From an uncultured Bacilli bacterium (GTDB lineage Bacteria; Bacillota_I; Bacilli_A; RF39; UBA660), in the NCBI GenBank assembly GCA_944358325.1, contig CALVQV010000001.1, positions 472 to 64,471 of the forward strand: a DNA stretch of 64,000 nt, given 5' to 3'. This document shows, piece after piece, positions 5,923 through 30,726 of this stretch. A program made the translations under genes and the position numbers. Within the stretch, counting starts at the first letter, position 1, and each line of letters opens with the position of its first letter. Below the pieces are notes generated by a model that searched no databases, was not told where the DNA came from, and saw nothing but the letters and a program-made list of their open reading frames with translations.

Positions 5923-5981
5923 ATTATGTAAACACATAATCTTTTTTTATACCTCCATATAATAAAGTGAAAGGAGGCATT

Positions 5982-11768: not shown

Positions 11769-13877
11769 TTATTCTTCTTCTTCAACATCGATTATAAAAT
11801 CAACAGTTTTAGCTTCTTTATTTGCATCTTTAACAATAACGTTTACAGTATCTCCTAAGCGATAACCACGTTTATCTTTATTACTTCTAATAGTAAATGT
11901 TGTTTCATCATAATAGTATTTACTATCTCCTGGTAAATCATCTATACGAACAAGTCCTTCAACTAAGTTTGGTAGTTCTACAAAGAAACCAAAAGTTAAA
12001 ACACTACTAATAATACCAGTATATTTTTCACCAATATGATCCATCATATACTCAGCTTTTTTCATATCATCAACTTCACGTTCGCATTCAATAGAATCTC
12101 TTTCCTTATTTGAAGCATGTTCAGTTAAGAAAGGTAGTTTTTGTTCCCAATATCTGATTGTATCCATATCCATTTTATTTTCAAAAAGATATGTTCTAAG
12201 TAGACGATGCACTGTTGTATCAGGATATCTTCTGATTGGTGAAGTAAAATGTGTATAACATTTACTAGCAATACCAAAGTGTCCTATATTAGTAGGATCA
12301 TATACTGCTTTTTGCATACTTCTTAAAAGTAGTTTTGATAATAAATGAAATTCTTTTTTATCATTTAATTCTTCTAGTATTTTTTGCATTGATTTTGGTG
12401 TTATATCATTAATTCTTGTACTTATATGATATCCTAACATATTAACAAATTTAAGAAAATTAGTTATTTTTTCTTCATCTGGTTTACCATGAATACGATA
12501 AACAAAAGGTAAATCCATCATGTATATATATGTTGCGACAGCTTCATTAGCGGCAATCATAAAATCTTCAATTAATTTTTCACCTTCGCCTCGATTACGA
12601 AGTACCACATCAATAGCTTTACCATCTTCATTAACAATTATTTTAGATTCATCAATATCAAAATCGATATATCCTCTTCTTGTTTTATTTTCTCTTAGTA
12701 TGTGTGCTAATTCAAGCATTTCTTTTAATTTATCAGCATATTCTTCATAGCCTTCAGGAATAATATTTTTCTCTAAAATACTATTAACATTTTTATATGT
12801 CATTTGTTTTCTTGATCTTATAACACTAGGAAAAATATCGGTTGTTAAAATATCTCCTTTATTGTTTATTTCCATAACGCAAGATACAGCTAAACGATCA
12901 ACATTTGGATTTAATGAACAAATACCATTAGATAGTTTATGTGGTAACATCGGTATAACACGATCAGCTAAATAAACACTTGTTCCTCTATCATATGCTT
13001 CTTTATCTATTTCCGTATTTTCACGTACGTAATAACTTACATCTGCTATATGAACTCCTAATTCATAATTACCATTTTCTAATTTATTAATTTCAATCGC
13101 ATCATCGATATCTTTTGTATCATCACCATCAATAGTGAAAATAATATGATCACGTAAATCTCTACGATCTTTCATTTCTTCTATACTAACTTCATTTGGT
13201 AATGCTTCAACTTCTTCCATTACTTCTTCACTGAAAGTATCATTAATGCCATACTTAGCTACTATACTTAAAATATCAACACCAGGATCATTTTTATGTC
13301 CTAAAATACGCACTACTTTTCCTTTATAATTATTATCCTTTAATTTAGCACCAACTTTAACTAAAACTTTATGACCATCCATTGCTCCCATTGCATCTTC
13401 TGGGCTAATAGAAATAGTTATTTTTACTTTTTCATCGTCTAGAGTTATATATCCCATACCATCATGAGTATGATATTCACCAACCATTTGTTTTAGTTCA
13501 CGACTAACAATTTTAACGATACGTCCTTCTAGTTCTACACCTTTTTTAGAAGTTATTTCAACAATAACTTGATCTCCATGAATAGCATTATTCATATTTG
13601 TTGGTGGGATAAAAACATCTTCATCACCATCAATATCGACAAAACCAAAACCTTTTTTATGGGCAATCATTTTACCTATTTTTAAATGACTGTTTGTGAA
13701 TAACATATAATTATCTTTTTTAGTACGATATACTTTTAATGTATCTTCTAATTCATTTAAAACTTTCATTAAATTTTTTAAATCATCAACACTAGTTAAG
13801 CCAAGCATGTCATATATTTCTTGAACAGAAAAGGCCTTATCTTCTTTTTTTAATATTTCTAGAATTTTATCTTGCAT
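11769..13877 (-). CDS. ribonuclease R paralog (second tandem copy)
   Basis: 702 aa. Same domain order with near-identical core motifs ([33 protein letters not shown]); acidic C-terminus. Confidence 0.9.
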   Translation of the reverse strand: MQDKILEILKKEDKAFSVQEIYDMLGLTSVDDLKNLMKVLNELEDTLKVYRTKKDNYMLFTNSHLKIGKMIAHKKGFGFVDIDGDEDVFIPPTNMNNAIHGDQVIVEITSKKGVELEGRIVKIVSRELKQMVGEYHTHDGMGYITLDDEKVKITISISPEDAMGAMDGHKVLVKVGAKLKDNNYKGKVVRILGHKNDPGVDILSIVAKYGINDTFSEEVMEEVEALPNEVSIEEMKDRRDLRDHIIFTIDGDDTKDIDDAIEINKLENGNYELGVHIADVSYYVRENTEIDKEAYDRGTSVYLADRVIPMLPHKLSNGICSLNPNVDRLAVSCVMEINNKGDILTTDIFPSVIRSRKQMTYKNVNSILEKNIIPEGYEEYADKLKEMLELAHILRENKTRRGYIDFDIDESKIIVNEDGKAIDVVLRNRGEGEKLIEDFMIAANEAVATYIYMMDLPFVYRIHGKPDEEKITNFLKFVNMLGYHISTRINDITPKSMQKILEELNDKKEFHLLSKLLLRSMQKAVYDPTNIGHFGIASKCYTHFTSPIRRYPDTTVHRLLRTYLFENKMDMDTIRYWEQKLPFLTEHASNKERDSIECEREVDDMKKAEYMMDHIGEKYTGIISSVLTFGFFVELPNLVEGLVRIDDLPGDSKYYYDETTFTIRSNKDKRGYRLGDTVNVIVKDANKEAKTVDFIIDVEEEE

Positions 13878-13966
13878 CTTACTACACCTCTATCTTAATT
13901 ATAAAGCAAATTATAATAAAAAGATATAATTTTTACATATTTTTACAACAAAAAAAGTAGGTTTTC

Positions 13967-14293
13967 CTACTTTATAAATAAATATACTAAGAAAATCATT
14001 AATGGTTCTAATAATAAAGTTAAAAGTCCTAAGAACCACATGTCTGTGAAAGCGCTATTGCTACGACGATGATTTGGTTGTTGCAATGTTTTCTTTTTTT
14101 GTTTTGCTATTTCCAAATTTTCTGATTTTACTTGATCTTCAAATAGACTTTGAACGTACGGATCACTAGATTCCCTTAATAATTCAGCTTGAGGATTAGG
14201 CATATCAGGATCATTGGCAAATTTCATTGGATCATCAATTCCTCTAAGTGCATCCCTTTGTTCTTGTAATTTTCTTAATTCTTCTTCAGTCAT
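13967..14293 (-). CDS. hypothetical tail-anchored membrane protein
   Basis: 108 aa, hydrophilic N-terminus and a single C-terminal TM helix. Start overlaps the rmuC stop by 8 nt. Confidence 0.4.
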   Translation of the reverse strand: MTEEELRKLQEQRDALRGIDDPMKFANDPDMPNPQAELLRESSDPYVQSLFEDQVKSENLEIAKQKKKTLQQPNHRRSNSAFTDMWFLGLLTLLLEPLMIFLVYLFIK

Positions 14294-15362
14294 TATTATC
14301 TCCTCCTTCTAATTTTTTAACTTCAACTTGATTAATAGAATTAAATCTTTTAGTAATTTTTTCACCAGTTGTGTGTAATTCTTTAACATCTCTACTTACA
14401 GTATCAATACTTCTTGATAACTTGTCCCATCTTTCTTTATATCTTCTAAATTCTTCATCAAGTAATTTTAATTGTTGATGAATGATGGTTGCATATTTAT
14501 CTCTTTCTAAATTTTTAATAATTACTTCAATTGTTGTTAAAGTACTTATTAAAGTAGTTGGACTAGTAATCCAGACTCTTTTTTTGTAAGCATATTCAAT
14601 AATATCTGTATGATAAGCATTTAATTCAGCAAATATAGCTTCAGCAGGCAAAAATAATATTGCTTGATCGGTTGTAACACCAGGAATAATATATTTACTA
14701 CTTATCGCATCAATGTGTTTTTTCATATCAGCTTTAAATCCTTTTAGAGCTAAATTTCTAGTAGTTTCATCTTTTGTCTTATCAACCATATTTTGATAAT
14801 TTTCTAAAGGAAACTTAGAATCAATAGCAATTGTTCCTAAAGGCTCTGGTGTAAATAAAACACAGTCAGCTATAGTACCGTTAGGAAAAGTATATTGTAA
14901 ACGATAAATATCATCATTTTTTTCACCAAAGACACTACTCATAATATGTCTTAAATTAACTTCTCCAAAAATACCTCGACTTTTTTTATCTGTTAAAACA
15001 TTTTGTAAACTAATAATTTCTGTTGATAAACCATCAATTTTCTTTTGAGCTTCATCAATTTTACTTAAACGTTCTAAAACATTAGTAAATGTTTTATTTG
15101 TTTTTTCAAAATTTTCATCTAAACGTTCATTAACACGATCATTAATTAAACGTAAACGTTGTTCTATCTTTTCATTTAAATTATTAAAGTCACCATTCAA
15201 ATCTTTCGCAAATTCACTTTTAAAGTTTCCTATTTCTTTAACTACTGTTGTTTCTAGTTTACCTAAACGTTCAGTAATATTTGATTCATTAATGTTTTTA
15301 TATAATGAAATAACAACTAGTATTAGTATTAACACTAAAAGTCCAATTATAATGTAATCCAT
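14286..15362 (-). CDS. rmuC: DNA recombination protein RmuC homolog
   Basis: N-terminal TM helix, long coiled-coil, C-terminal RmuC-like domain. Family assignment from architecture, not verified. Confidence 0.6.
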   Translation of the reverse strand: MDYIIIGLLVLILILVVISLYKNINESNITERLGKLETTVVKEIGNFKSEFAKDLNGDFNNLNEKIEQRLRLINDRVNERLDENFEKTNKTFTNVLERLSKIDEAQKKIDGLSTEIISLQNVLTDKKSRGIFGEVNLRHIMSSVFGEKNDDIYRLQYTFPNGTIADCVLFTPEPLGTIAIDSKFPLENYQNMVDKTKDETTRNLALKGFKADMKKHIDAISSKYIIPGVTTDQAILFLPAEAIFAELNAYHTDIIEYAYKKRVWITSPTTLISTLTTIEVIIKNLERDKYATIIHQQLKLLDEEFRRYKERWDKLSRSIDTVSRDVKELHTTGEKITKRFNSINQVEVKKLEGGDNND

Positions 15363-17721: not shown

Positions 17722-20055
17722 TTATTCATCTTCACTGAAGAAATCGTCAAAGAATTGATCATCAGTAACAAAATTTTCATCATATTGTTCTTCTGGATTG
17801 GAAGTAATTTCTTCTTCTTTAACAACTACTTTTCCAGTTTCTGTTGGTTCTGCTACCGCTACTTTTACTTCTTTTCTATCTACTTTCTTTTCTTCTATTT
17901 TTGGTTTTTCAACCTTATCTACATCATAAGTAAATTCGGGTTCATCATCAATAATTGATGTCTCTGGAATATTAACCTTTTTAGCTTCTTCTTTTGTATC
18001 TTTAGTAAGATTTTCAACAAGTTCATCAACTTTGATTTCTTCCTCTTTAATTTCAAGTGGTTTATCAATTTCTTGTTTTGTTTCTTTTGATTTAGCTTCT
18101 GCTGCTTCTTTTTCTTTTCTTTCTTCCTCTTCTAATTCAGCTAATTTAGCATCTATACGTTTAGTTAATTCATCAAGATCAAATGGTTTTCTTTGAATTG
18201 GTTCAGAATTAACTTGTTGCTTTGGAAATGGTTGAGTTTGTGCTGGTGATTGACCAAATAAATTAGTTCCCATTGGACTATCCATAAGTGGGTTTCCACT
18301 TCCACCGCTACCAAACATTTCTTCCATTTTAGCCTTATGTTTAGCTTCTGTAAATCCTTTAATATCAAATATTTGTAAAGTTTTCTTTTCTCTAAGTGGT
18401 AAAACACATTTTGGATAATGCTTACCCCATTTACCTTCTTTATCCATTTGGAAATAAGGAATAGCTTTAGTTTTAAATGGCATCATTCTTGAACGAATAA
18501 TGATTTGTGTCCATTTTGGCAAACGTTGTAAATCACTAACTGTAACAAGTGGTGTTGAAGCAGTCTTTTCATCTTTCTTAGATTCTTTTTCACCACATAA
18601 TTTGCTTATTTCTTCTAAGGCTGCTAATTCACTACTAATTAAGTAAATTATATTACCACAGTTACCTTTAATTGTTTCAGCAGTTTGTTTACCATATACA
18701 TCTTCTAATTGTGCAAAGTTTTGAATAATGAAGTTTAATCTTATTTGACGAGAACGAGCAGCTGTAATCATTGTACTGATATCTTTTAATGGTGGCATAT
18801 TGGCAAATTCGTCTAGGATAAAGTTAGTACGATATTTTAATTTACCACCATTTTCTTGAGCCACATCAATCAATGTTTCATAGCATTGTTTTAGAAAAAT
18901 AGTACCTAATGCATGATATGTTTTCTTTTCATCTTGTAAGATAATAAATACAGCTGTTTTCTTTTTACCAATATCACGCATATCAAAATCACTATAACTT
19001 AACATTTCACTTAAGTTATCACGTGATGCAAAAATTTTAATTTTTGTTCTAAATACTGATAAAATACTTCCTTTAGTTTCTGTAGGAGCATTAATAGTTG
19101 AGTTAACGTTAACATATGAACTACTAGCACGATCTTTGAAATTAAAGTAAGCATTTAATAATTTTGTTCCAGCAAATTTATCATCTGCTGCCATAGCCAT
19201 GACATTAATACTATTAATATTGATTTCTTCTTTTTTAGCATCTTCAAATAAAGCAAGAGCTAAACCAGTAAAGAAATCTCCACCTGTATTTTGCCAGAAT
19301 GGATCATCAGCATGTTCTTCATGAACGATATTTGTTCCTAAATCTTCTAATAATTCGATTGCTTTATCTTGATTGCCATTTTTATAATAATAATATGGCG
19401 CTTCTAACGGATTCCAAGCATTACCATTTTGTGGATTACGAAAGTTTAATACAACAATGTTATATCCTTTTTCTTTTAGCAATTCACCATTTCTTTCGTA
19501 AATTTCTCCTTTTGGATCGGTAATAATCATTGATTCGCCTTTACGAGCAAGAACACTAACTAAAGGTTGAACAACCATTTCTGTTTTACCAGAACCTGTA
19601 GCCCCAATAATTAAACTGTGATATTCGCCATCATCAACCCATACACCACTTTTATTATTGATTAGAGGCACTCCAGCTGCCTGTATATCCATAGAAGATG
19701 GATCAATTCTTTTTAATTCTTTTTGCATTTCTCTGTCTTTAGCCCATCTAGAATATCCACCTTTATCTTTTTTAGAAGTAGATAATCCAAATCCTTTTTC
19801 TCTTTCCCAAAAATAATTAGAAACACTAGCAATAATACCAATTAAAGCAGCTAGAAAAAAGACCATTGTAGGCGCAAACATTTCAGCACTAAATGCAGGT
19901 AATGGATTTAAACCATGAAAACTACTAGTTCCAGCAAAAGTAATAATATTTAATTCAACAATTGCTACAACATACAATAATATTACACAAAAAATGATAA
20001 AAATAATTATATCTTTTGGCTCTGCTCTAAACTTCAATTTCATAGTACCCTCCAT
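17722..20055 (-). CDS. type IV secretion coupling protein (VirD4/TraG/TraD family) with long acidic C-terminal tail
   Basis: Two N-terminal TM helices, Walker A IIGATGSGKT, TraG/VirD4-like all-alpha and nucleotide-binding regions. C-terminal ~190 aa is E/K-rich low-complexity sequence. Confidence 0.85.
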   Translation of the reverse strand: MEGTMKLKFRAEPKDIIIFIIFCVILLYVVAIVELNIITFAGTSSFHGLNPLPAFSAEMFAPTMVFFLAALIGIIASVSNYFWEREKGFGLSTSKKDKGGYSRWAKDREMQKELKRIDPSSMDIQAAGVPLINNKSGVWVDDGEYHSLIIGATGSGKTEMVVQPLVSVLARKGESMIITDPKGEIYERNGELLKEKGYNIVVLNFRNPQNGNAWNPLEAPYYYYKNGNQDKAIELLEDLGTNIVHEEHADDPFWQNTGGDFFTGLALALFEDAKKEEININSINVMAMAADDKFAGTKLLNAYFNFKDRASSSYVNVNSTINAPTETKGSILSVFRTKIKIFASRDNLSEMLSYSDFDMRDIGKKKTAVFIILQDEKKTYHALGTIFLKQCYETLIDVAQENGGKLKYRTNFILDEFANMPPLKDISTMITAARSRQIRLNFIIQNFAQLEDVYGKQTAETIKGNCGNIIYLISSELAALEEISKLCGEKESKKDEKTASTPLVTVSDLQRLPKWTQIIIRSRMMPFKTKAIPYFQMDKEGKWGKHYPKCVLPLREKKTLQIFDIKGFTEAKHKAKMEEMFGSGGSGNPLMDSPMGTNLFGQSPAQTQPFPKQQVNSEPIQRKPFDLDELTKRIDAKLAELEEEERKEKEAAEAKSKETKQEIDKPLEIKEEEIKVDELVENLTKDTKEEAKKVNIPETSIIDDEPEFTYDVDKVEKPKIEEKKVDRKEVKVAVAEPTETGKVVVKEEEITSNPEEQYDENFVTDDQFFDDFFSEDE

Positions 20056-20118
20056 ATAGTAAATATTCTAGATATAATTATATAACAAAATTAAAAAAAC
20101 TACAATGATTTGTAGTTT

Positions 20119-20775
20119 TTAAATTTTATTTTTTATATTAGAAGAATTTTTAATTATAGATAAAATTAATGATACTATCCCAACAATAATCAAAGATATT
20201 AATACAAAAATTAGAATTTGATTATTATTACTTTTTTCTATATTATTTTCATCAATATCATTAATAATAACTAAATTAATATTACCTTTTTTTTCTGGAG
20301 TTAATTCCCATATATATTCTCCATTTTTTACTTCATCAGCATTGTGGTTAGTAACTTTGTATTTTGTTTTTATACTTATACTAATTTTTTCTAAATTATC
20401 ATATTTATCAAATATATTAATATTTTCAACAGAAAATAAAACATAATTGTTATCTAATCCTGTATATAAAACATCAGCATATTCTTCAGGAAAAAAATTA
20501 ATTTGCTTGTGATTTATATTCACGCGCCTTGTTAATGTAACTTTAGAAGTGAATAAAGTTGAAGAAAATTTATAACTATAACCATATGTCTCTAAAAATT
20601 TTTTATTATCTTCTATTTGTTCCTTAAAACTATTATCAAATATATTCGATTTAGAAACTTCTAATACAATTTTTTCCGTCATATAACTTGGTGAAATATC
20701 TAATGTTACATCAGCAGAACAACCAGTTAATAAACATATGAAAAATATACATATTAATATTTTTATCTTTTTCAT
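20119..20775 (-). CDS. lipoprotein with C-terminal TM anchor (T4SS-associated, function unknown)
   Basis: Signal peptide plus lipobox LLTGCS, C-terminal hydrophobic helix. Sits between the coupling-protein and CHAP-hydrolase genes. Confidence 0.55.
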   Translation of the reverse strand: MKKIKILICIFFICLLTGCSADVTLDISPSYMTEKIVLEVSKSNIFDNSFKEQIEDNKKFLETYGYSYKFSSTLFTSKVTLTRRVNINHKQINFFPEEYADVLYTGLDNNYVLFSVENINIFDKYDNLEKISISIKTKYKVTNHNADEVKNGEYIWELTPEKKGNINLVIINDIDENNIEKSNNNQILIFVLISLIIVGIVSLILSIIKNSSNIKNKI

Positions 20776-20787
20776 ATAATCAATCCT

Positions 20788-22383
20788 TTAATAATCAATT
20801 GTATAAATATATCCTAAAAAATTCATGCCATTTCTATTTTGAATCGAAGAAAGCGTTGCGTCTTCTAAAGCCCATGTCCCCTTTGCAGGAGGACTTGTAG
20901 CTCCAGGAATACTAACTGCTCCAGACATACTGGTATTAGCGTGAGAAAAAACAACATGTGTTACACCATTTTCTTCATATATATTTTCTATAACAGCTAC
21001 GTGTCCAAAAGAATTACTACCACTTCCACCCCAAACGATAACTGCACCTATCTTAGGTGAATTAATGTCTGTAGAAGTAGAAAACATCATACCACCTACA
21101 ATACGTGGATCAGTAATCCAATTTTTAGCATCAGGAAACCCATCAATTCTAATGCCACTTCCCATAGATGCCATTATTTCATTTACACGGCCTTTAACAT
21201 ACCAAGTACATTGTCCCCATAAACTTGATGCAGTTCCAGAGCCACTCCACCAAAAACTATCATCAGATGGATTTGCTTGTTCCGGCGGTCTATCTCGTGG
21301 CGTAAATCCATCAATATTAACTGTAATCGTTCCTAATCCAGCAACACTTTCAATAGTTTGATCAGTATAAAATTCACGTAATAAATATATTTCATCAATT
21401 ATATCTTGTACTTTTTTATTATATTCTTCACTTCCACGTGTCATATATTGCCACTTGCAATCTCTACATTCCATATAATAAGTTGGTACAAAATATTCAG
21501 TTAAATATGTATTATATTTTTTATAATCGATAACATATCTAAGTTTTGTGGAATTATAATATCCTTCACCACATTCAAGATCTAAATTTGCATATGAAAA
21601 ATCAAATAATTTTTCGAAAGATTCAATTGTAGTATATGTACTAGCAATTGTTTTATTGTACCATACATCAAAAGAATCATATCCTAAATTATCATATACA
21701 TACATATTATAAAGCCCGTTAGCTATATTTAAACTAACTACACTATCACCAATATTTTGATCTAAGCTATAACCAACACTTTTTATTGAATTAACAATTG
21801 CTTCTCCTAATGCATCAAGCCAACTTCCTTCTTTGCATTCTGTAACCAATTGCCTATTAACCATATTTCCTAATAAACCAGGTCTAACATAACTATTGAA
21901 ACTCCCAAGCTCATTATTAGCCCATCTATAAAAATATCTTGTATCATTTGTTTCAACTATAGGTTCGGGTTGATAATCATCTTTAGTCTCTGTTTCTTCT
22001 TCAATTTCAGTAAATGCATTAGAATCTAATAAACTTCCATAATGTATTGTTGCGTTTGCTAGAGGAATATCTAAAGAACCAACGCCATCTACATCAGCAT
22101 ATCTATCAGCTTGTTCTTGTAAATGTGTGTAGTATCCTTTATCATCATCTGACCACCCATTAAAAGTAATAAACTCTCCTAATTCTTTTGTAAATTCTTT
22201 AGTTGCTTGTCCTATGTCATCAAAAAATTCTCCAACAGCTGCAAAAGGGGAATAGACAAAAATGCATAACATAATCAGCATAATTATGAGACCAAATATT
22301 GGTAGAACTGAAATTATAATAGGGATAATCATTTTTTTCATCTTTGATTTTATCATATTACTTATAAAATTATCATCTTTCAA
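20788..22383 (-). CDS. CHAP-domain peptidoglycan hydrolase (VirB1-equivalent of Gram-positive T4SS, CwlT/TcpG-like role)
   Basis: N-terminal TM helix and a large central domain. C-terminal CHAP signature with Cys (GQCTWYVKGR) and His (FGHVAVIE). Confidence 0.7.
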   Translation of the reverse strand: MKDDNFISNMIKSKMKKMIIPIIISVLPIFGLIIMLIMLCIFVYSPFAAVGEFFDDIGQATKEFTKELGEFITFNGWSDDDKGYYTHLQEQADRYADVDGVGSLDIPLANATIHYGSLLDSNAFTEIEEETETKDDYQPEPIVETNDTRYFYRWANNELGSFNSYVRPGLLGNMVNRQLVTECKEGSWLDALGEAIVNSIKSVGYSLDQNIGDSVVSLNIANGLYNMYVYDNLGYDSFDVWYNKTIASTYTTIESFEKLFDFSYANLDLECGEGYYNSTKLRYVIDYKKYNTYLTEYFVPTYYMECRDCKWQYMTRGSEEYNKKVQDIIDEIYLLREFYTDQTIESVAGLGTITVNIDGFTPRDRPPEQANPSDDSFWWSGSGTASSLWGQCTWYVKGRVNEIMASMGSGIRIDGFPDAKNWITDPRIVGGMMFSTSTDINSPKIGAVIVWGGSGSNSFGHVAVIENIYEENGVTHVVFSHANTSMSGAVSIPGATSPPAKGTWALEDATLSSIQNRNGMNFLGYIYTIDY

Positions 22384-22402
22384 AAATGATCACCACCTTA
22401 TT

Positions 22403-24187
22403 TTATAATCCTCCACCTCGTCCCATGGAATCTAATTCTTCATCTGTCGCAATAACATTAATTTGCATACGACGACTTCCACATACAAACAAGGCATTAC
22501 CTTGTTGATATCTTTTTATACTTTCTTTTTCATTATCGTTCAAATCTATTAATAACGCTAAATCTTCTACTGCTTGTTTTTTCAACCCCATTATAAGATA
22601 ATATGAAGCATTATCAAATATTGCTTTACCTTGAGTTATAACAGCAGGATCACTAAAATCACTAGGTTGTTGTGTAATAATAATTGTTCCTGTATTATAT
22701 TTTCTTGAACGTCTTTGAATTTGTGCCAAGAAATCTGCTCCTAGTGTATTGTTACCACTGATTAAAACATGAGCTTCATCAACCATTAAAATAGTATTAA
22801 TATTTCTGTCTAATGTCATACCCCAAGCATATTTTAAAATATTAAAGAATAAAGCATTTTTAATATTAACATCACTATTCATTAATTCACGAATGTTGAA
22901 AACAATAAATTCGCTTTTTGGTGTAATAGTTGTATGACCATCAAAGTAATATTTTAATTCTTTAACAATTGGTCTAATTTTTAATTCCAATTTTTCTAAT
23001 ATAGCTTTTTCATGAGATGCTTCTGGCATTGCTAAAATACGTCCTTTAATAGTTGCGTACACATCTTTAAATGTTGGATAATCTTTAGACGTAAATTTGC
23101 TAAAATCAGTATCAAAGCCAATACCAAATCTTTTATATGTATCTTGAACAACTTCACTAAACATTGTAATAACATCTTCTTCCACACTTGGATCATAATA
23201 TTTCAAAAATGCTTTTAATGTTTGAAGAGTTCTAGTAAGAATAGTATAACCTAATCCTTCTTTTAATTCATCTTCATCGGCATCTAGAATCACTTCAAGT
23301 GGATTAATCATACCAAATTCTCCACCCTTACCTAAATCAATGAAATCTCCTCCAAAGAATTTAGTCATTTCTTCTAATTCACCTTCAGGGTCAATAACAA
23401 CTATCTTATAATTGTTTCTAAAATGACTTCTTAAAAGTAATTTTGCTGCTGTAGATTTACCACTACCAGAAGTACCTAAAATAATCATATTAGCGTTATT
23501 ACGATTGTGTTCTTTTTTTATTTGATATAAGAATTGATTAAATAATATAACACCTCCAGAGAAATCAGTACCTAATAAAGTACTTAATCCCGGATCTTTA
23601 ATACTATCAAAAATATATGGATACATAGCTGCAATTGTGGTAGATGGTATAGGTGTACCTATACGATCTTCAATATCTTGTTTTGGAAAAATTGGTAAAA
23701 TGGATTTTAATACTTTTTCTTGTTCAAACATCAATGGTACTGCTTGCATTTCCATTGATTCCATATAATTTTTCAATTGAACCTTTTTAGCAATTAATTC
23801 ATCATGTGAATCTGCAGTTATCATAATATGTAATTGAAAATCGTAAATCTTAGCTTGTGTACTTGCTAGCATTTGAATAAATTGTTCTAATGACTCATAA
23901 TCTTGTCTAATTCTTTCTTGTAATGTTTTATCATTTTCATCTTGAAATCTTTGTTTTAAATCAGCGATTTCCTTATTAATCATTTTACTGATAGTACTAA
24001 ATGGTAATGGTATATGTTTAATTACCATTTTTACACCTGGTATACTAGTAATATTAGATAAATAAGCAGTACTAATATATTTAGGATAAGAAATTGCTGT
24101 CAAAATAGTTGCATATTTATCGCTAATAATAAAATCTCTAGGCCTAAATTCTAAGCCTTTTGGCGCTAACTGTGTCTTAATATCCAT
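22403..24187 (-). CDS. VirB4-family T4SS ATPase, C-terminal (ATPase) part
   Basis: Walker A ILGTSGSGKST, Walker B ILMVDEAHVL, motif IIITQQPSDF. Starts with the QLAP...YP... region typical of Gram-positive VirB4 (TrsE/PrgJ/Orf16-like). Confidence 0.85.
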   Translation of the reverse strand: MDIKTQLAPKGLEFRPRDFIISDKYATILTAISYPKYISTAYLSNITSIPGVKMVIKHIPLPFSTISKMINKEIADLKQRFQDENDKTLQERIRQDYESLEQFIQMLASTQAKIYDFQLHIMITADSHDELIAKKVQLKNYMESMEMQAVPLMFEQEKVLKSILPIFPKQDIEDRIGTPIPSTTIAAMYPYIFDSIKDPGLSTLLGTDFSGGVILFNQFLYQIKKEHNRNNANMIILGTSGSGKSTAAKLLLRSHFRNNYKIVVIDPEGELEEMTKFFGGDFIDLGKGGEFGMINPLEVILDADEDELKEGLGYTILTRTLQTLKAFLKYYDPSVEEDVITMFSEVVQDTYKRFGIGFDTDFSKFTSKDYPTFKDVYATIKGRILAMPEASHEKAILEKLELKIRPIVKELKYYFDGHTTITPKSEFIVFNIRELMNSDVNIKNALFFNILKYAWGMTLDRNINTILMVDEAHVLISGNNTLGADFLAQIQRRSRKYNTGTIIITQQPSDFSDPAVITQGKAIFDNASYYLIMGLKKQAVEDLALLIDLNDNEKESIKRYQQGNALFVCGSRRMQINVIATDEELDSMGRGGGL

Positions 24188-24786
24188 TATCCAATCACCG
24201 TCCCAAATGTCGTACTTTTTCCACCATTTAAGAAATTATCAATAATAATTCTTAAATCTTCATTTGTGGTTTGATATGAAGTTAATCCAGCTTGTGCTAA
24301 GTTATTAATTAAATTACGAATTCTTTTTTGACATAACTGCATATCTTTATCTTTAAATAAAATATAAAATTCTGTATCAACAACATTATTATTCATAAAC
24401 ATATTAGCCTTATTAATATCTTGTCTAATAAGTTTTTTCTTGATTTGATTTTGACTATTGTTATATAAAAGTTCTAGATTTGATAAATAAACATTTATAT
24501 CAACCGGTCTATCAGCAGCAATCATCCAAAACTCATAATCGATACTATCATAAACTCTGCGTAAATTAACAATCGCACTATCTTGCGATAATTGATCTAA
24601 GATGAAAATATTTTTAGGCATTATTTTAACACCAGTAATATAATAATTGTTATCTAAAATAATCATCCCATTAACAATACTTTTAACTGGAACAAAATGA
24701 TCATTAGTATACTTACTTTTTGTCTTTGTCATAACTGAAGCACCAACCCTTCCATACGTATCTTTGCCTATTAGTATAAAAAACAT
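24187..24786 (-). CDS. VirB4 N-terminal domain encoded as a separate ORF (split gene or frameshift)
   Basis: 199 aa. Its pattern (IVNGMIILDNNYYITGVKIMPKNIFILDQLSQDSAIV...) resembles the N-terminus of Gram-positive VirB4 ATPases. Stop overlaps the start of 22403..24187 as TAATG. 199+594 aa equals the normal VirB4 length. Confidence 0.5.
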   Translation of the reverse strand: MFFILIGKDTYGRVGASVMTKTKSKYTNDHFVPVKSIVNGMIILDNNYYITGVKIMPKNIFILDQLSQDSAIVNLRRVYDSIDYEFWMIAADRPVDINVYLSNLELLYNNSQNQIKKKLIRQDINKANMFMNNNVVDTEFYILFKDKDMQLCQKRIRNLINNLAQAGLTSYQTTNEDLRIIIDNFLNGGKSTTFGTVIG

Positions 24787-25027
24787 AGGCTGAATTTATA
24801 AACGTCAAAACATTATGATAATTCGGAATAGGAAAAACTAAAGCAGATGCTAGCAAGCCAGGAGTTAAAGCTAAAGCAGCAATTGTGACATTACTTAAAT
24901 CCAAAAACGCCATTAATAACAAACTAATCCCTACTCCAACACCAAATATTATTAAATCAACAAAAGTAAAAAGTCCAAAAATTAACATAGACTTTTTACT
25001 ATTTGCTGGAATCAAATAACTATTCAT
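24713..25027 (-). CDS. VirB3-like small two-TM membrane protein
   Basis: 104 aa with two hydrophobic helices, immediately upstream of and overlapping VirB4. Same position as Tn916 Orf17, ICEBs1 ConD and PrgI. Confidence 0.45.
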   Translation of the reverse strand: MNSYLIPANSKKSMLIFGLFTFVDLIIFGVGVGISLLLMAFLDLSNVTIAALALTPGLLASALVFPIPNYHNVLTFINSAYVFYTNRQRYVWKGWCFSYDKDKK

Positions 25028-25044
25028 ATAGTATCACATCCTTT

Positions 25045-26811
25045 TTATTTTTTGTTTTTATTACCACTCAATGCTTTTTTATCTTCTTCTAACTGTTTAA
25101 TATCTTTGTTAATATCTTTTGCTTGTTGAGTAATATTATTTATTTCATTATTTATAGAAACTAAATTATTAACTTCTGACAATAACCTATTTCCTTTTTC
25201 TCTATCTTTAAGTTCTGAAGAAGCTAATAACTGATTAATAATAGGCTGTATATCGCTTCCATCAAATTTTCTTGTTCCCGTTTTTTCATCCCTTTTAAAT
25301 AAAGAACGCATCATTTGTGGATCTATAGACTTTTCAATAGCAGATGAAAATGCATCGCGTAATGATTCCATTTCTAATTCTAAATTTAACTTTAATTGTG
25401 TTTTATCATTTAATTGATTTTTAATATCATGGGCTTTTGTTGTAGTATATTCTTGTCCACTTACATCATTCCACCAATTAATAATTTTTTGTCCACTACC
25501 AATACCTCTTGCTCTAATGTTTCTATTAGCACTACTAGTAGACGCCCCCTTATTTACAGAAGAAATAATATTTCCTTTCCCACTTGATGCGTCAAGTGCA
25601 GCATGAAATCCTCCACTAAAACCACCTGCTATAGCAGATCCAGCTGTTTTTAAGAATCCTTTTTTCTTGTCAATACCTGAAGCGATATTAGCAGCAAATG
25701 ACAACGCTGAACCTCCAACTGCTGATACTGCTGCGGCTGCTAAAGGTGAAGACCCTATTTTCTTTAAAGGATTAAGAGTAAATCCACTACCCATTTTAAT
25801 TCCTAAGATATCACCAACTAATTTTGGTAACTGACTAACAAACATAAGAATACCAATTATTATAAATGTTTGAGCAAAAAAATCACCTGATTTAGAACCT
25901 GCAATTATATTGCCATCTGGCCCATATTCATTAAATCCAAGTCCACCATTAGTGAAATTAGCACAAACTTCACTAATAAGAAAAATTCCAAAATATATAG
26001 CAATTAGCCTTGCAAAAACGTCCAAATATGTTTTTGTACATTCACTAACCCAATTATTAAATATTTTATCTCCCTTTTTCTGATCTATATATGAAAGAAC
26101 TGGAATAGGAGCAATTAATTGTAGAAAAGCTAATTTTACAGAACGAATTGCAATATCAATACAAAAAATTAGTAAAATCCACGCCACAAATCCACCAGCA
26201 ATAGTTGAAATAAAAGCTTGATAGTGGTATCTATATTCTCCATTATCTTTGGTGTTTATATTTTCATGAATGAATTTTGAAGCTGATGACCAACTTGTTG
26301 AACTCATAGCAGTATCATAATCACTTCCCGCCACATAATTATTTGGATAAAAAAAGCCTTGGAAAGTTCTTATTGCCATAATGTTACCACCATTTTTTAT
26401 AGCTTCATTGGGATCAGTTGTAGTCATACCTGCTAAGACTAAATTACCTATGATATTTTCATGCAAAATAACATATTGAATCCTATATGCAAATGTAAAT
26501 ATCCAAGGTACTATTGCTAGACATACAAGGGAAATAACAATTCTTTTTATAAGCGCGCCAGAACCTGATTTACTATCACTAATACTATCAGGATTAGCAT
26601 ACCATGATATCATAGAAATTGTTATTTTAAAAATCATAAAAATACCAATTAGAATATAAATTCTTTGTGTAAATTCACTAATTGTATCTTGACCAATTAC
26701 TGCAATATTAGAAATTGTCATAAACAATTCATACAGCATTCCAATTACGCTGTATACTATTTTGTCCAGACAAAACATAATCCATCTAAATGCATCTTCT
26801 ATCCATCCCAT
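25045..26811 (-). CDS. VirB6/TrbL-like polytopic membrane protein with Gly/Ser-rich region and coiled-coil tail
   Basis: 588 aa with at least 6 TM helices. Internal G/S/A-rich segment and a C-terminal coiled-coil (KDINKDIKQLEEDKKAL). Architecture like ConG/TcpH channel proteins. Confidence 0.55.
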   Translation of the reverse strand: MGWIEDAFRWIMFCLDKIVYSVIGMLYELFMTISNIAVIGQDTISEFTQRIYILIGIFMIFKITISMISWYANPDSISDSKSGSGALIKRIVISLVCLAIVPWIFTFAYRIQYVILHENIIGNLVLAGMTTTDPNEAIKNGGNIMAIRTFQGFFYPNNYVAGSDYDTAMSSTSWSSASKFIHENINTKDNGEYRYHYQAFISTIAGGFVAWILLIFCIDIAIRSVKLAFLQLIAPIPVLSYIDQKKGDKIFNNWVSECTKTYLDVFARLIAIYFGIFLISEVCANFTNGGLGFNEYGPDGNIIAGSKSGDFFAQTFIIIGILMFVSQLPKLVGDILGIKMGSGFTLNPLKKIGSSPLAAAAVSAVGGSALSFAANIASGIDKKKGFLKTAGSAIAGGFSGGFHAALDASSGKGNIISSVNKGASTSSANRNIRARGIGSGQKIINWWNDVSGQEYTTTKAHDIKNQLNDKTQLKLNLELEMESLRDAFSSAIEKSIDPQMMRSLFKRDEKTGTRKFDGSDIQPIINQLLASSELKDREKGNRLLSEVNNLVSINNEINNITQQAKDINKDIKQLEEDKKALSGNKNKK

Positions 26812-26832: not shown

Positions 26833-27738
26833 TTACCAACAGAAATATTCTCCTAATCCAATAGCATTTAATAAGAAATTGATTAATTCTGGTAATAAAT
26901 ATAAAACTATTATAATTCCTATTCTAACAGCAAAATTTTTATTTGCTTTTTTGAAACTTTTAAAATCACTATTATCAATTACTACTTTAGCATAATCCAT
27001 CATAGTTACAATAAATAATAAAACACTTAAAAATATTCTTATCATTTTGTATATATCTTTGATTATTTCAGCTAATCCCCCTAAAGCATCGCAACCATTT
27101 TTTTCACTAAAATCTAAATCTCCAATATTACTTCCACCTTGTTCGTTACCTTGATTAGTATCTTGATTATTATCTTGAGAATCTTCATCTTTTTCAGTCC
27201 ATTCAATTTCATATTGTTTTTTACAAGACTCTCTAAGTTCTTCAGTAGTTCTACATTCACATCTTGTTTTGCAATCTTCTACACTACTAGCTTGCCCTGT
27301 GGCATTACAATAATTAAGAATCCAAGATTTACAAGGTTCTTGAGAACATTTTTGTTTTAAAGTTATACTTGTACTAGGTGATGTCATATCAATACCTATG
27401 CAGTCACGGCACATATCAGAAACATTAGAATTCTCCACTGGACAACTTTTATATAAATTTTGATATTTTGTAAATCTATTTGATTCACAAGTTCCCATAT
27501 TACTAGCCATACTGCTATTTTGACAAACTCTAAATTCATCATTAATTTTTTTTAGTTCTGTTTGAATTTGTTCTAATGTCATTCCACCAATTTTAGTTAC
27601 TCCAAAATCTTCGTCACATAATTTTGAAGCAGAGTTAATTGGTGTGTATTTATCGGGAATAGCCTTAACATTTGCAGTCCCTATTATAAATAATAATAAT
27701 ATTAGAAATATTTTTGATAAATTTTTCTTTTTTAACAT
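26833..27738 (-). CDS. secreted Cys-rich protein with C-terminal double-TM anchor
   Basis: Signal peptide MLKKKNLSKIFLILLLFIIGTANVKA. About 17 Cys in the extracellular part, two C-terminal hydrophobic helices. Start set at the ATG with RBS AGGGAGA; the ORF track starts at TTG 27762. Confidence 0.5.
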   Translation of the reverse strand: MLKKKNLSKIFLILLLFIIGTANVKAIPDKYTPINSASKLCDEDFGVTKIGGMTLEQIQTELKKINDEFRVCQNSSMASNMGTCESNRFTKYQNLYKSCPVENSNVSDMCRDCIGIDMTSPSTSITLKQKCSQEPCKSWILNYCNATGQASSVEDCKTRCECRTTEELRESCKKQYEIEWTEKDEDSQDNNQDTNQGNEQGGSNIGDLDFSEKNGCDALGGLAEIIKDIYKMIRIFLSVLLFIVTMMDYAKVVIDNSDFKSFKKANKNFAVRIGIIIVLYLLPELINFLLNAIGLGEYFCW

Positions 27739-27783
27739 ACATAGTTCTCCCTTGATATACAATAAACTAATATAATTATAGCA

Positions 27784-27836: not shown

Positions 27837-28175
27837 TTAGCAATTGTTATTTAAAAAGCAATCAACACATTCCATTGGACTTGCTGTGTCGCCACCTGCT
27901 GATCCTAATAATCCAAATACTAATTGAACGATTGAGAAAATTAAGAATACAATAACAGCTGCGATAGCACGTGTAATAAAAGTTTTTTGTCCTTTTTTAA
28001 TATCATCTTCTTTTTGTTGCATTACAGCTTTTCCTAAATCCATCATTCCGTATAAAATTAATGCGATTGGTACAAAAATTTTAATTATATTATATGCTAA
28101 ACTAACTAAATTAGGTAGCATCGCTGGTATTCCTTCAATTCCTCCACATGAAACAGTTGCGTCTAAAACAAACAT
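27837..28175 (-). CDS. small two-TM membrane protein with C-terminal Cys cluster
   Basis: 112 aa with two hydrophobic helices. C-terminus 'ASPMECVDCFLNNNC'. Last gene before the internal terminator. Confidence 0.45.
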   Translation of the reverse strand: MFVLDATVSCGGIEGIPAMLPNLVSLAYNIIKIFVPIALILYGMMDLGKAVMQQKEDDIKKGQKTFITRAIAAVIVFLIFSIVQLVFGLLGSAGGDTASPMECVDCFLNNNC

Positions 28176-28233: not shown

Positions 28234-29223
28234 TTATATGTTAAATAAGCCTAAAAGTTTCTTCTTTTTTTCATTTTCGCCATCTGCTTGACGTTCAAAA
28301 CCCATTTTCATTAAGAATGGATCCATTGCATTTATATCTTTTTCTCTTTCATCAAGTGGTGGCATATTATAAAACACTTTAGTTTTTGCTTCATATTCAA
28401 AGTCTAATACATCTTTTGGAGTTAAAAGGCTTTGATTTAAAATTAAATGTTTTCCCTTTAATTCGTTAAAAATCTTTCTATTACTCAACATTAATTTATT
28501 TAATTTAATAGTTGAAGGTTCTAATAAGTAAAGAGTGTCTTGACACATTCCTTCAGCTACAGAACTATTATTCATATCTACTAATATAACATCATTACCA
28601 TTATATTTTGCAAGTGTATTACCTAAATCTTGTGTAACGGTAGAAACCATATTTTTATCTCTAAAATATGCAAAATCACGTTTATCAACTTCGATTGCCA
28701 CAACACTATAATTTTTACTCAATTGTTTTTTCATCATATAAGTAAATGTTGTTGCTCCTGCACTTTGATTAACATTTTTAATTCCTATTATTTTAGTTCC
28801 TGAATTTGGTCCAAATTTTTCTACAACAACTTCATGAATATTATCAAGTTGATGATATTGTGCTACGTCACGATAACTATTAGGGTTATTATATAAATAA
28901 ACTATTCCTTCTACATTTTTTGTAAAATTATAAATTCCCATGGAAATTAATTTTGATAAATAATCACTAGATGAACTATCAGGAGAATCATCAAGTAAAA
29001 GAATTACTTTATCCATGTCTAAAGAAATTGATAATTTTTGTAACGTTTTTATATCTTTATAATTTTTTATAGCTGTAATATCTAAAATCATTCTTTGATA
29101 AAAGAAATTTTGAAATTGATTAATAATTTCATCAACAGTAAATTCTCCATCTAGTCTTTTAATAACTTCTATTTCTAATGATTGTAGCATTGCACTATAA
29201 CGATTAGCAATTATAACATTCAT
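28234..29223 (-). CDS. TadZ/CpaE-like protein (receiver-like N-domain plus degenerate ParA/MinD-like domain)
   Basis: 329 aa. Central 'IIGIKNVNQSAGATTFTYMM' sits where the deviant Walker A (GxKGGxGKTT) would be but is degenerate. Walker-B-like VILVDMN. Position next to tad-like genes. Assignment tentative. Confidence 0.35.
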   Translation of the reverse strand: MNVIIANRYSAMLQSLEIEVIKRLDGEFTVDEIINQFQNFFYQRMILDITAIKNYKDIKTLQKLSISLDMDKVILLLDDSPDSSSSDYLSKLISMGIYNFTKNVEGIVYLYNNPNSYRDVAQYHQLDNIHEVVVEKFGPNSGTKIIGIKNVNQSAGATTFTYMMKKQLSKNYSVVAIEVDKRDFAYFRDKNMVSTVTQDLGNTLAKYNGNDVILVDMNNSSVAEGMCQDTLYLLEPSTIKLNKLMLSNRKIFNELKGKHLILNQSLLTPKDVLDFEYEAKTKVFYNMPPLDEREKDINAMDPFLMKMGFERQADGENEKKKKLLGLFNI

Positions 29224-29241: not shown

Positions 29242-29757
29242 TTACATACATTTATTATTGACACATTTGTCATTACCACAATCTGCATCTGTATTACACT
29301 TATGATGATTATCTATAGTATGATAAAAAACTTTGGTTTGTCCCGTTAAAGGAATTTCTAATTTTGAATCAATTATTGGTATATCCAAATACATATAGGC
29401 TACCACATAATATTGATTACCTCTTCCTTGTGGTTCTTCATAAATACAATATCTATAGTTTTTTTGATTATTAATAGCTGTCAAAACATTTCCAGACTTC
29501 GTTGTTCTTGTAGGACATGTGTGATTATTACTAACACGATATCCAATATCTTTCAACATTTCTTCTATTTTTTGATCTAATACGGCTCTGTTTTCTTCTG
29601 AATAACCATCATCATATTTTTCAATCAAATCAACAATTTTATTCTTAACTTTAAAAGCTTTTGAATAAGCAAGAGAACTTAAAAATACTAACATAATTAT
29701 TATAATAAATGTAATGATAATCATAAAAACATAACTGTTTGCGATTGATTCCTTCAT
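29242..29757 (-). CDS. TadE/pseudopilin-like membrane-anchored protein, Cys-rich C-terminus (paralog A)
   Basis: N-terminal TM helix, then 'LAYSKAFKVKNKI', 'YCIY', 'YLDIPI'. C-terminal knot-like CNTDADCGNDKCVNNKCM. Confidence 0.4.
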   Translation of the reverse strand: MKESIANSYVFMIIITFIIIIMLVFLSSLAYSKAFKVKNKIVDLIEKYDDGYSEENRAVLDQKIEEMLKDIGYRVSNNHTCPTRTTKSGNVLTAINNQKNYRYCIYEEPQGRGNQYYVVAYMYLDIPIIDSKLEIPLTGQTKVFYHTIDNHHKCNTDADCGNDKCVNNKCM

Positions 29758-29790
29758 ATTTCCTCCTACCTATTAAAAAACTTTTAAATT

Positions 29791-30216
29791 TTATATATTA
29801 AATCTAAAAATTCTTTCTGTTTTTGTATATACAGGTACTTTAATTATATCTTTTACAAATGGTAAATCAATGTATAAATAAGTTAAAACACCATATGTAT
29901 AATGTCTAGCATCTTCTTTGTAATAATATATACAATATGCATAATTATTACTTAATCTTTCGACTGCTTCAGCATCGTCTCTATTTGGACACACAAAATT
30001 TTTATCATATGTATAACCAAGTGTTTTTAATACATCTTCTATTTCAGATGCTGCTAAATCATTATATCCTTCATATTTCTCAATAGCAAATATAATTCTA
30101 CTATTGACACGAAAGGCTTTGGAATAACTTACAGTAGCTGCTAAAAAAGCAAAGACAATAACTATAAATATTAAAACAATGTTATATAAAGCAATGCTTC
30201 CAACGCTTTGATTCAT
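29791..30216 (-). CDS. TadE/pseudopilin-like membrane-anchored protein (paralog B)
   Basis: Shares 'SYSKAFRVNSRI', 'YCIYYY' and 'YLYIDLPF' with 29242..29757. Same N-terminal TM topology. Confidence 0.4.
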   Translation of the reverse strand: MNQSVGSIALYNIVLIFIVIVFAFLAATVSYSKAFRVNSRIIFAIEKYEGYNDLAASEIEDVLKTLGYTYDKNFVCPNRDDAEAVERLSNNYAYCIYYYKEDARHYTYGVLTYLYIDLPFVKDIIKVPVYTKTERIFRFNI

Positions 30217-30219
30217 AAG

Positions 30220-30462
30220 TTACCACCTCCAAAACTTACATTTACTTGTGCATGATGTATCTTGATTAACAGCAAAACCATTAACATCTACGCAAATATT
30301 ATTTTCCATTCTTCTTCCACCAGCATCCTTGCAACATTCATGTAAACAAAGTCTTTGAAAGATATATAAAGTTAAAAAAAGTAAGATGGTTACGATTACA
30401 GCAATCAAAAAGTATGTAAAAATTTTTTCACCAATACTCTTTTTTTCTTTCATCATAACCAT
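30220..30462 (-). CDS. small pilin-like protein (TM helix plus conserved CC..GG..ENNxCV motif), paralog 2
   Basis: 80 aa. One TM helix, then 'ECCKDAGGRRMENNICVDVNG'. Confidence 0.4.
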   Translation of the reverse strand: MVMMKEKKSIGEKIFTYFLIAVIVTILLFLTLYIFQRLCLHECCKDAGGRRMENNICVDVNGFAVNQDTSCTSKCKFWRW

Positions 30463-30483
30463 CTCCCTAAAATTATAGACAAA

Positions 30484-30681
30484 TTAGCATTCATCAGATG
30501 CTCCAACGCAGGCATTATTTTCCCAAACACCACCATTTGTCATACAACAAGATTTCTTCTTAGTACTTTCCATTGCACTGTTAATAATTGGAGTTACAAC
30601 AGCAGCAATTACGGCGATTAAAATAATAGCCATTACAGTTAAGTTTGCTTCACCAGCAGCTTCTTTCATTATCTCACCCAC
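30484..30681 (-). CDS. small pilin-like protein (TM helix plus conserved CC..GG..ENNxCV motif), paralog 1
   Basis: 65 aa. Short charged leader ending in Gly, hydrophobic helix, then 'SCCMTNGGVWENNACVGASDEC'. Size and position right after the tadC-like gene fit an Flp-type pilin, but the canonical G/xxxxEY motif is absent. Confidence 0.4.
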   Translation of the reverse strand: MGEIMKEAAGEANLTVMAIILIAVIAAVVTPIINSAMESTKKKSCCMTNGGVWENNACVGASDEC

Positions 30682-30726
30682 CTTACTTTTCTTAATTATA
30701 ACACCTTTTTATTAGTTTATCAACAA

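Follow-up and report, generated by a model that had tools for sequence, protein, structure and literature searches.

Tad loci of Gram-positive bacteria follow the order tadZ-A-B-C-flp-tadE-tadF, with tadV elsewhere (PMC13091076); the description of plasmid pLS20 lists the small proteins of its operon as 'Unknown' and reports that no pilus homologues are encoded (PMC8557374); and DUF5411 genes found beside those for CpaF and PilC/GspF in Roseburia, Ruminococcus and Eubacterium have been proposed to belong to an uncharacterised system resembling a type IV pilus or a type II secretion system (T2SS) (PMC9523054). Here we describe four small genes – p65, p80, p141 and p171 – on the minus strand of a 64,000-nucleotide stretch from an uncultured Bacilli bacterium of the GTDB lineage RF39 (assembly GCA_944358325.1, contig CALVQV010000001.1, positions 472 to 64,471; hereafter the window), where they lie between genes for a Tad-like motor and those for a type IV secretion system (T4SS). 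We consider it rather probable that they encode type IV filament subunits of the adjacent Tad-like machine, with p65 as major pilin, p80 as its duplicate and p141 and p171 as minor pilins, and that these form a sequence class of their own.

Comparison with described systems

In transcriptional order, the operon comprises p539, p225, p858, a DUF5411 gene, a CpaB/RcpC-like gene, a T2SSE-type ATPase gene, genes for two polytopic membrane proteins, the four small genes, p329, p112 and p309; it then continues into a T4SS half with genes for a TrbL/VirB6-like protein, two small proteins, a VirB4-like ATPase, a CHAP hydrolase, p218 and a VirD4 coupling protein (Table 1). An earlier note on this DNA, made from the letters alone, had overlooked both this continuation into a Gram-positive T4SS and the separate VirB2-like family of p112 and p309. 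It had assigned the four genes the place of flp and tadE/tadF in a tad locus; they do directly follow the TadC-like gene, although the tadB and tadC labels are themselves unconfirmed by sequence.

As in the Gram-positive Tad (type IVc) systems, we find here an ATPase, two membrane proteins, a pilin-like protein of about 60 residues, two paralogous proteins of about 140 residues with the same N-terminal signal and a ParA/MinD-type, TadZ-like protein, with the peptidase outside the cluster. Unlike in those systems, there is no membership in the Flp or TadE families, the signal reads G/E-x-x-x-T rather than G/x-x-x-x-E-Y, the TadZ-like gene follows the pilin-like genes instead of preceding them, CpaB and a DUF5411 protein are present, the ectodomains are Cys-rich and the operon is fused to a T4SS. 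Two plasmid-derived references for Flp and TadE were discarded: a Phyllobacterium match is an orphan flp, and an Escherichia coli 'tadA' is a mis-named IncN VirB11.

Among plasmid genes, the ATPase is matched best by those of the 'CpaF/VirB11 family' on plasmids of the pLS20 type, whose operons (genes 36-45) were compared in Bacillus and Clostridia, including loci L081 and L087. Common to both sides, in the same module order, are a DUF5411-like protein (p36; expectation value (E) 8.6e-4), a CpaF/VirB11 ATPase (33% identity), two polytopic proteins, a 120-residue protein with an N-terminal transmembrane (TM) helix (p40; …SIG/K…, …YFDLP…), small TM proteins, a PF18895 pilin, VirB6 and VirD4; the equivalent of pLS20 p45 matches PF18895 at E 8.8e-8, and an hhalign comparison of p141 with p40 (E 0.014) is only suggestive. 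In contrast, pLS20 is without CpaB, a TadZ-like protein and a p65-type gene – its 47-residue p41 is unrelated in sequence – and is a plasmid with a relaxase, whereas the present locus looks chromosomal, is flanked by scpAB and is without a recognised relaxase. The 47-residue single-TM protein (MLDQNTDR…) is conserved after the p40 gene in pLS20-type plasmids (L087 12196-12339 and 12456-12599; L081 15228-15422), is tandemly duplicated in a Paraclostridium plasmid and may be the filament subunit of the pLS20-type system itself.

With the classical type IV and Com pilins (N_methyl, PF07963), the small proteins share a six-residue leader ending in Gly, a hydrophobic N-terminal helix (alpha1-N) with Gly/Pro kink positions, a C-terminal region that is probably disulfide-bonded and the fact that minor and major pilins have only their N-termini in common. 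They differ from these in having neither Phe+1 nor Glu+5, in a predicted mature N-terminus shorter by one residue, in a p65 head of only about 25-50 residues, and in being accompanied by Tad-like machinery (CpaB, a CpaF-type ATPase) rather than PilB, PilC and PilM-Q. In the clostridial DUF5411 operons, likewise from Firmicutes, the DUF5411 protein again has a CpaF-type ATPase as its neighbour, but, as described, these operons have no T4SS half or Cys-rich small pilin (PMC9523054).

A shared N-terminal leader and helix

Relatives of the locus were collected through a scan with the ATPase, which yielded 428 confirmed relatives, and the best 80 of them (68-88% identity) were taken; synteny counts refer to the 56 related loci with enough downstream sequence. 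As the earlier note had stated, the G/xxxxEY motif is absent; what it had passed over is a conserved short leader ending in Gly. This six-residue leader, M-[KR]-E-[AS]-x-G (A or S in place of Gly in some), is followed by a hydrophobic helix of about 22 residues, and we regard it, on sequence grounds, as a candidate processing signal.

In the p65 family, the N-terminus reads MKEAAGEAN(L/M)TV, with K2, E3, E7, A8 and T11 in 70/70 sequences and G6 in 69/70. Since synonymous codons are free to vary (GCA/GCT, GGA/GGT, ACA/ACT), the constraint acts on the protein, and a nucleotide-level cause of the invariance is ruled out. Where Phe or Met would be looked for at +1 and Glu at +5, p65 has Glu (70/70) and Thr (70/70). 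The two groups of larger paralogues open with M-[KR]-E-[SA]-[IV]-G, with Gly in 61/68 and 52/67 sequences and A or S in most of the others, and carry a conserved Asn six residues after the Gly position; the leader is MRESIG in p141 and M[KR]EAIG in p171 of most species, and p171 of the window has Ala in place of the Gly. The divergent duplicate p80 retains G-1, E+1 and T+5. The DUF5411 protein, too, starts in this manner (MKESFWG), keeps leader and TM helix across about 77 loci and may be one more subunit of the pilin-like kind.

Across the six frames of the window, M[KR]E[SAG]x(1-2)[GAS] is found at three places, all of them in this operon and all just before a TM helix. In an hhalign comparison of p65 with p141/p171, residues 1-26 are in register (E 5.4e-5), and homology among the three families is confined to this N-terminal module. 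That small abundant and larger paralogous subunits have only a leader and hydrophobic helix in common is characteristic of major and minor type IV pilins. The first 35 residues of p65 are found in 61 representatives among 1.84 billion, all of them proteins of 38-111 residues and all but two matching from residue 1.

Gene starts, paralogy and promoter

All four minus-strand open reading frames reported by the earlier note exist at the coordinates it gave, each with a strong Shine–Dalgarno sequence ahead of it and each called by independent gene callers on three identical metagenomic contigs. Two lengths needed correction. The GTG start behind the '65 aa' of p65 lies within the Shine–Dalgarno sequence; the true start is the ATG at 30669, which follows AAGGTGGGTGAG and gives 61 residues (MKEAAGEANLTV...), matching the independent calls on the three contigs. 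The '80 aa' protein is called as 78 residues from the ATG at 30456, the longer GTG frame entering the ribosome-binding site. The predicted single TM helix in each protein and the paralogy of both pairs were borne out, with BLASTP E 2e-5 and 29% identity for the small pair and E 1e-19 and 33% identity for the large pair. The Cys block is present in both small proteins as described, though not with identical spacing – CC-x3-GG-x2-ENN-x-CV in the first (which can also be written CC-x3-GG-x-W-x4-C) and CC-x3-GG-x3-ENN-x-CV in the second, one indel apart. In the larger pair, the YCIY block stands as noted, and the other two read [SA]YSKAF[KR]V and Y[IL]D[LI]P.

A TTGAxA-17/18-(TGn)TATAAT site together with the Shine–Dalgarno sequence AAGGTGGTGA precedes the first small gene in 54/69 orthologous spacers and is missing before second small-gene copies. 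A putative strong promoter inside the operon, serving a single small gene, would befit a structural subunit made in bulk.

Likeness to known pilins

Scans of the four proteins against Pfam and NCBIfam returned sub-threshold noise only, and in profile searches of a 5.8-billion-protein set the small protein drew 2447 clusters and the larger pair 736, all without a name or Pfam domain. The comparison with pilin families that the earlier note had proposed came out divided: there is no match to the Flp, TadE, N_methyl or T4SS_pilin hidden Markov models (HMMs), but the p65 helix does resemble the classical alpha1-N. The sole match with E<1 of the p65 profile to the PDB is the type IV pilin PilE1 of Streptococcus sanguinis (8pfb; E 0.007), aligning the profile segment vitiiLIavvaavatplinn with IVVIIIIAIIAAVAIPAITS (PilE1 residues 7-34) across the AAVAxP kink (AAVAIP in PilE1). 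Against the N_methyl prepilin helix encoded in the related locus L047, hhalign gives E 1.9e-5 and a probability of 78%. The kinks of the classical alpha1-N are at G14 and P22; p65 has Gly (41 sequences) or Ala (29) at +13 and Pro at +21 in 50/70, each one residue short of these. The alpha1-N similarities are the only non-trivial ones found and all point in the same direction. PDB profile searches with the p141/p171, p329, DUF5411, TadB-like and TadC-like families were negative.

Conservation and natural variants

The ATPase, both polytopic proteins and CpaB are present in 56/56 loci, the larger pair in 55/56, the small gene in 54/56, p329 in 52/56 and p112 in 50/56, and the small gene and larger pair always stand directly after the TadC-like gene. 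The size and position of Flp are matched by a small-family product of 55-100 residues directly after that gene in 54/56 loci, and the TadE/TadF arrangement by two larger paralogues downstream of the small gene in 67 loci, with an N-terminal module that aligns with that of p65. In most species a single small gene precedes the two larger paralogues, and a few species have two or three small copies; p80, as a divergent second copy, is confined to this window and its closest relative, L001.

Classical prepilins appear in the same setting in two relatives. In L047, a 522-residue N_methyl prepilin (KKG/FTLIELLAV; 13760-15328) that scores above threshold is inserted between the two larger paralogues, and L058, which has no p65-type gene, encodes N_methyl prepilins of 530 and 136 residues (122-1714 and 1873-2283) just upstream of the operon; these imply that the clade has a prepilin peptidase.

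In L045, L058 and L080, the T4SS half has been lost and the Tad-like half kept, together with the small gene and both larger paralogues (L045), the small gene and one larger paralogue (L080) or the two larger paralogues only (L058). It follows that the small genes go with the Tad-like motor and that the two halves of the operon can be separated. The TadZ-like gene has also gone in several T4SS-less lineages (L045, L058, L080 and L068), and L068 has lost everything after tadC.

Six lineages carry a gene for a YfhO-family GT-C glycosyltransferase (PF09586, E 1e-106 to 1e-154) between the TadC-like gene and the first larger paralogue (Table 1), a placement that recalls the pilin glycosylation genes found beside pilA in other bacteria. 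The invariant E-A-N-(L/M)-T of the p65 N-terminus can also be read as a D/E-x-N-x-S/T sequon.

Structure and cysteines

An AlphaFold2 (AF2) model of p141, built from a 71-sequence alignment (predicted local distance difference test (pLDDT) 86.5, predicted template-modelling score (pTM) 0.73), has helices at 3-47 and 53-66 and a three-stranded sheet of strands 94-100, 105-117 and 124-132; as modelled, the order of these elements is that of the pilin lollipop. C76 and C95 of p141 are invariant.

The small-family sequences have 0, 2, 4 or 6 cysteines in 72/73 cases – four in 47, and none in four members that nonetheless keep the N-terminus – and the larger-family sequences 2, 4 or 6 in 131/135. 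Judged from these sequences, the even parity, variable spacing and pairwise loss are more in keeping with disulfides than with a metal site. With its hypervariable sequence and paired cysteines, the p65 ectodomain has a surface-exposed look. In the same operon, p225 and p309 have Cys-rich ectodomains and N-termini that we read by eye as Sec signal peptides, and extracellular disulfides are plausibly a theme of the operon.

Weighing the readings

We favour filament subunits on account of the gene neighbourhood, the leader and helix common to the families, the likeness to alpha1-N, the model of p141, the promoter of p65, the even number of cysteines, the insertion or substitution of classical prepilins and the co-segregation with the motor. 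Several observations nevertheless pull the other way. The leader is neutral rather than basic and is followed by Glu, not Phe or Met, at +1 and by Thr, not Glu, at +5, which places it outside the PilD, TadV and FlaK rules. No A24 prepilin peptidase was found in the 64-kb window or within 10 kb of the 80 loci when looking for the GxGD motif and polytopic reading frames. At E<=10, none of 42 small-family members matches Flp_Fap (PF04964), N_methyl (PF07963) or T4SS_pilin, and none of 71 larger-family members matches TadE (PF07811) or any other pilin family; archaeal Pilin_N matches are sub-threshold only (6/42 small-family members). Foldseek with the p141 model matched no pilin. Lysines stand right after the p65 TM helix, so that the positive-inside rule favours the opposite topology, and the two platform proteins give T2SSF matches in only 4/73 members (E>=0.058) and no sequence matches in the PDB. 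Caution is also due with the pilin similarity itself, which is limited to a hydrophobic helix whose composition inflates scores. The earlier proposal of a pilin and pseudopilins of a tad-like locus, possibly disulfide-stabilised, is the best-supported explanation and is borne out in part, by context, leader and helix, alpha1-N similarity, the p141 model and even cysteine numbers; no pilin HMM or Foldseek match and no peptidase gene were found.

The missing peptidase and structural match are what a different role would lead one to expect, namely that the proteins are non-polymerising bitopic accessory subunits, with p141 and p171 as an alignment or stator pair like PilN/PilO or VirB8, p65 in regulation or anchoring, and uncleaved N-termini docking onto the ATPase or platform. 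A paralogous single-TM pair with an extended helix and a small alpha/beta domain, as in the p141 model, is also the PilN/PilO design, and the pLS20-type operons have the equivalent p40 and small TM proteins with no pilus reported. We nonetheless hold this to be unlikely, though deserving of serious weight: the dedicated, conserved strong promoter and ribosome-binding site of p65 suggest a bulk structural subunit, three families have the N-terminal module in common, as the members of a pilin set do, classical prepilins occur at this very place as insertions or substitutes, and the p65 ectodomain has the exposed look described above.

A little less probable again is that p65/p80 and p141/p171 are true but highly diverged orthologues of Flp and TadE/TadF, that is, a type IVc system whose motif has drifted. 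Their position after the TadC-like gene, their sizes (a pilin of about 60 residues and two paralogous pseudopilins of about 140) and the presence of CpaB and a TadZ-like protein would all accord with this, but PF04964 and PF07811 fail even at E<=10, there is no G/xxxxEY motif, and the p65 helix has kinks of the G13/P21 type and aligns with classical (T4a/Com-type) pilins rather than with Flp.

Very improbable, in our judgement, is that p65 and p80 are Cys-rich peptides unrelated to filaments, such as a bacteriocin, a signalling peptide or a metal-binding, 'FeoB-associated'-type protein. PF12669 (FeoB_associated) does match 22/42 small-family members below threshold (best E 9.5e-4), p171 has a weak YxzE-like bacteriocin match and a basic patch lies just ahead of the Cys block; however, the PF12669 match covers the TM helix and none of the cysteines, the four Cys-less members keep their N-terminus, cleavage sites of the double-glycine or Sec type are absent, as are immunity, transporter and feoB genes, and synteny with the Tad-like genes is strict (54/56 loci). 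A match on the TM helix alone and the wrong context speak against the bacteriocin or FeoB-associated identity, which we reject. That p65 and p80 might be VirB2-type pilins, as small hydrophobic proteins in a T4SS-containing operon, is scarcely worth entertaining and is in effect ruled out by their one TM helix instead of a two-helix hairpin, the lack of a PF18895 match and the better candidacy of p112, whose family (p112/p309) matches PF18895 here as does the p45 equivalent in pLS20.

A possible filament and its link to the T4SS

If the four proteins are filament subunits, we infer cleavage, polymerisation, disulfides and a link to the T4SS along the following lines. They would insert with the N-terminus in and the C-terminus out; a prepilin-type peptidase encoded elsewhere would cut after the Gly and expose the invariant Glu+1, with Thr at +5 taking the place of the classical Glu+5. 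The TadA-type ATPase, acting through the two polytopic platform proteins, would then lift p65 from the membrane into a helical fibre with a core of N-terminal helices, which p141 and p171 – possibly with the DUF5411 protein – would prime and cap, while CpaB and the TadZ-like protein would position the machine. The fibre surface would be formed by the small, disulfide-locked C-terminal knob, perhaps glycosylated by the inserted YfhO enzyme in some lineages. Because the operon continues into the VirB4/VirB6/VirD4/CHAP T4SS, the fibre would probably serve that system, be it as a pilus for contact or adhesion or as a pseudopilus that spans the wall.

More tentatively – we think it possible, but would not expect it – the Tad-like and T4SS halves may be one chimeric machine, in which a type IV pilus or pseudopilus, built from a new pilin class with a G/E…T signal and a disulfide-locked knob, is integral to a Gram-positive T4SS. 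This would be the missing monoderm 'conjugative pilus', foreshadowed by the unexplained pLS20 genes 36-41 and fixed in the RF39 chromosome as core equipment for contact-dependent exchange of DNA or protein with partner cells.

Significance

Gram-positive conjugation systems are generally described as pilus-less, a view that a pilin-like set with a Tad-type motor in a monoderm T4SS operon would, if real, challenge; it would also give a testable function to the 'unknown' gene block on plasmids of Bacillus, Listeria and Clostridia. Should M-[KR]-E-[AS]-x-G/E…T prove to be a processing signal, it would widen the range of class III signal peptides and predict a peptidase of matching specificity. 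The families are large (thousands of clusters at 90% identity) and wholly unannotated, and merit new family models. RF39-like bacteria are common in animal and human guts, and RF39, a genome-reduced gut order, has to our knowledge no cultured member; a surface fibre whose tip is hypervariable, disulfide-locked and possibly glycosylated could plausibly determine how these bacteria attach to host or partner cells.

Neighbouring genes of the operon

Table 1. Coordinates of the small genes, their operon neighbours and the YfhO genes of related loci (window coordinates unless a locus is named)
Feature	Coordinates	Strand	Remarks
Promoter-like site TTGATA-17-(TGt)TATAAT	30695..30723	-	57-nt spacer between TadC-like gene and p65; best match in region
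p65, candidate major pilin, 61 aa	30484..30669	-	leader MKEAAG; hydrophobic helix with G/P kink positions; basic patch; Cys block
p80, 78 aa	30220..30456	-	divergent duplicate of small pilin-like gene; …KKSIG/EKIFTY…
p141, candidate minor pilin 1	29791..30216	-	leader MNQSVG; invariant C76, C95
p171, candidate minor pilin 2	29242..29757	-	leader MKESIA; extra four-Cys C-terminal tail in this lineage
DUF5411 protein, 133 aa from MKESFWG	34480..34881	-	E 2.6e-53; leader and TM helix
CpaB/RcpC-like protein, SAF domain	33646..34464	-	PF16976, E 2.6e-7
TadA/CpaF/VirB11-type secretion ATPase	32426..33643	-	PF00437, E 2.6e-26
TadB-like polytopic membrane protein, 300 aa	31511..32413	-	label from position and topology only
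TadC-like polytopic membrane protein, 264 aa	30727..31521	-	label from position and topology only
p329, TadZ/CpaE-like two-domain protein	28234..29223	-	alpha/beta (flavodoxin-like) N-terminal domain and ParA/MinD-fold domain
p112, VirB2-like 'T4SS_pilin' family	27837..28175	-	two-TM hairpin, Cys tail; distinct from p65/p80
p309	26833..27762	-	putative Sec signal; very Cys-rich ectodomain; C-terminal p112-like hairpin
T4SS half of operon	17722..26811	-	VirB6/TrbL-like, VirB4-like, CHAP, VirD4
VirB6/TrbL-like protein	25045-26811	-	
VirB4-like protein	22403-24187	-	
CHAP hydrolase	20788-22383	-	
VirD4 coupling protein	17722-20055	-	
YfhO gene	L007 13069-15423; L018 13751-16165; L056 12970-15450		upstream of small gene
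YfhO gene	L015 10053-12524; L021 10041-12524; L037 9852-12281		just downstream of small gene

The most conserved non-ATPase protein of the locus is p329 (63-73% mean column identity; >6400 clusters, all unnamed). In its AF2 model (pLDDT 75.5), a beta-alpha-beta domain at the N-terminus is followed by a C-terminal domain for which Foldseek returned ParA, MinD, HypB, UreG, BcsQ and FlhG (E 3e-5 to 1e-3), with TadZ outside the top 50; as modelled, this domain layout is that of TadZ/CpaE. Because the lysine of its degenerate Walker A motif is replaced (K149…G156-A-T-T), p329 is probably a non-hydrolysing, TadZ-like organiser.

In the p112 family, 22/37 members have PF18895 as their top match (best E 5.1e-5), and p309 shows homology to p112 at its C-terminus (E 1e-7). 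Relatives may carry several p112 copies per locus, and a promoter-like site, TTGACA-17-TACAAT, lies at 28229-28201. The large, conserved proteins p539, p225 and p858 have no Pfam or other family match. A rhodanese gene follows that of the coupling protein.

The window and its relatives

The window has a G+C content of about 27%, and housekeeping genes flank the locus (scpAB, clpP, thiI, ezrA, rpsD, tyrS, pfl, infB, nusA, RNase R and smpB), with scpA/scpB next to it in about 21/62 relatives as well. Although the T4SS looks complete (VirB4, VirB6, VirD4, CHAP), neither it nor its surroundings (window 17386-40000) showed a recognisable relaxase, integrase or oriT-type feature, and a plasmid blastn search with the locus gave no match; the locus looks chromosomal and long-resident. 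Nearly all of the best 80 relatives are metagenome-assembled genomes labelled Bacilli, Tenericutes or Mollicutes from animal and human guts, which we take to belong to an RF39-like lineage; Candidatus Fimihabitans is among them. A literature search on RF39 together with pili, T4SS or competence found nothing relevant.

Elsewhere in the window, two tandem genes with RNase R/RNB domains (9547-11715 and 11769-13877, minus strand) stand beside smpB. On the plus strand, at 5967-7155, in a region of positive GC skew, a phage-type holin gene overlaps one for an M23 peptidase/LysM protein, a pair that may be a lysis cassette or a prophage remnant.

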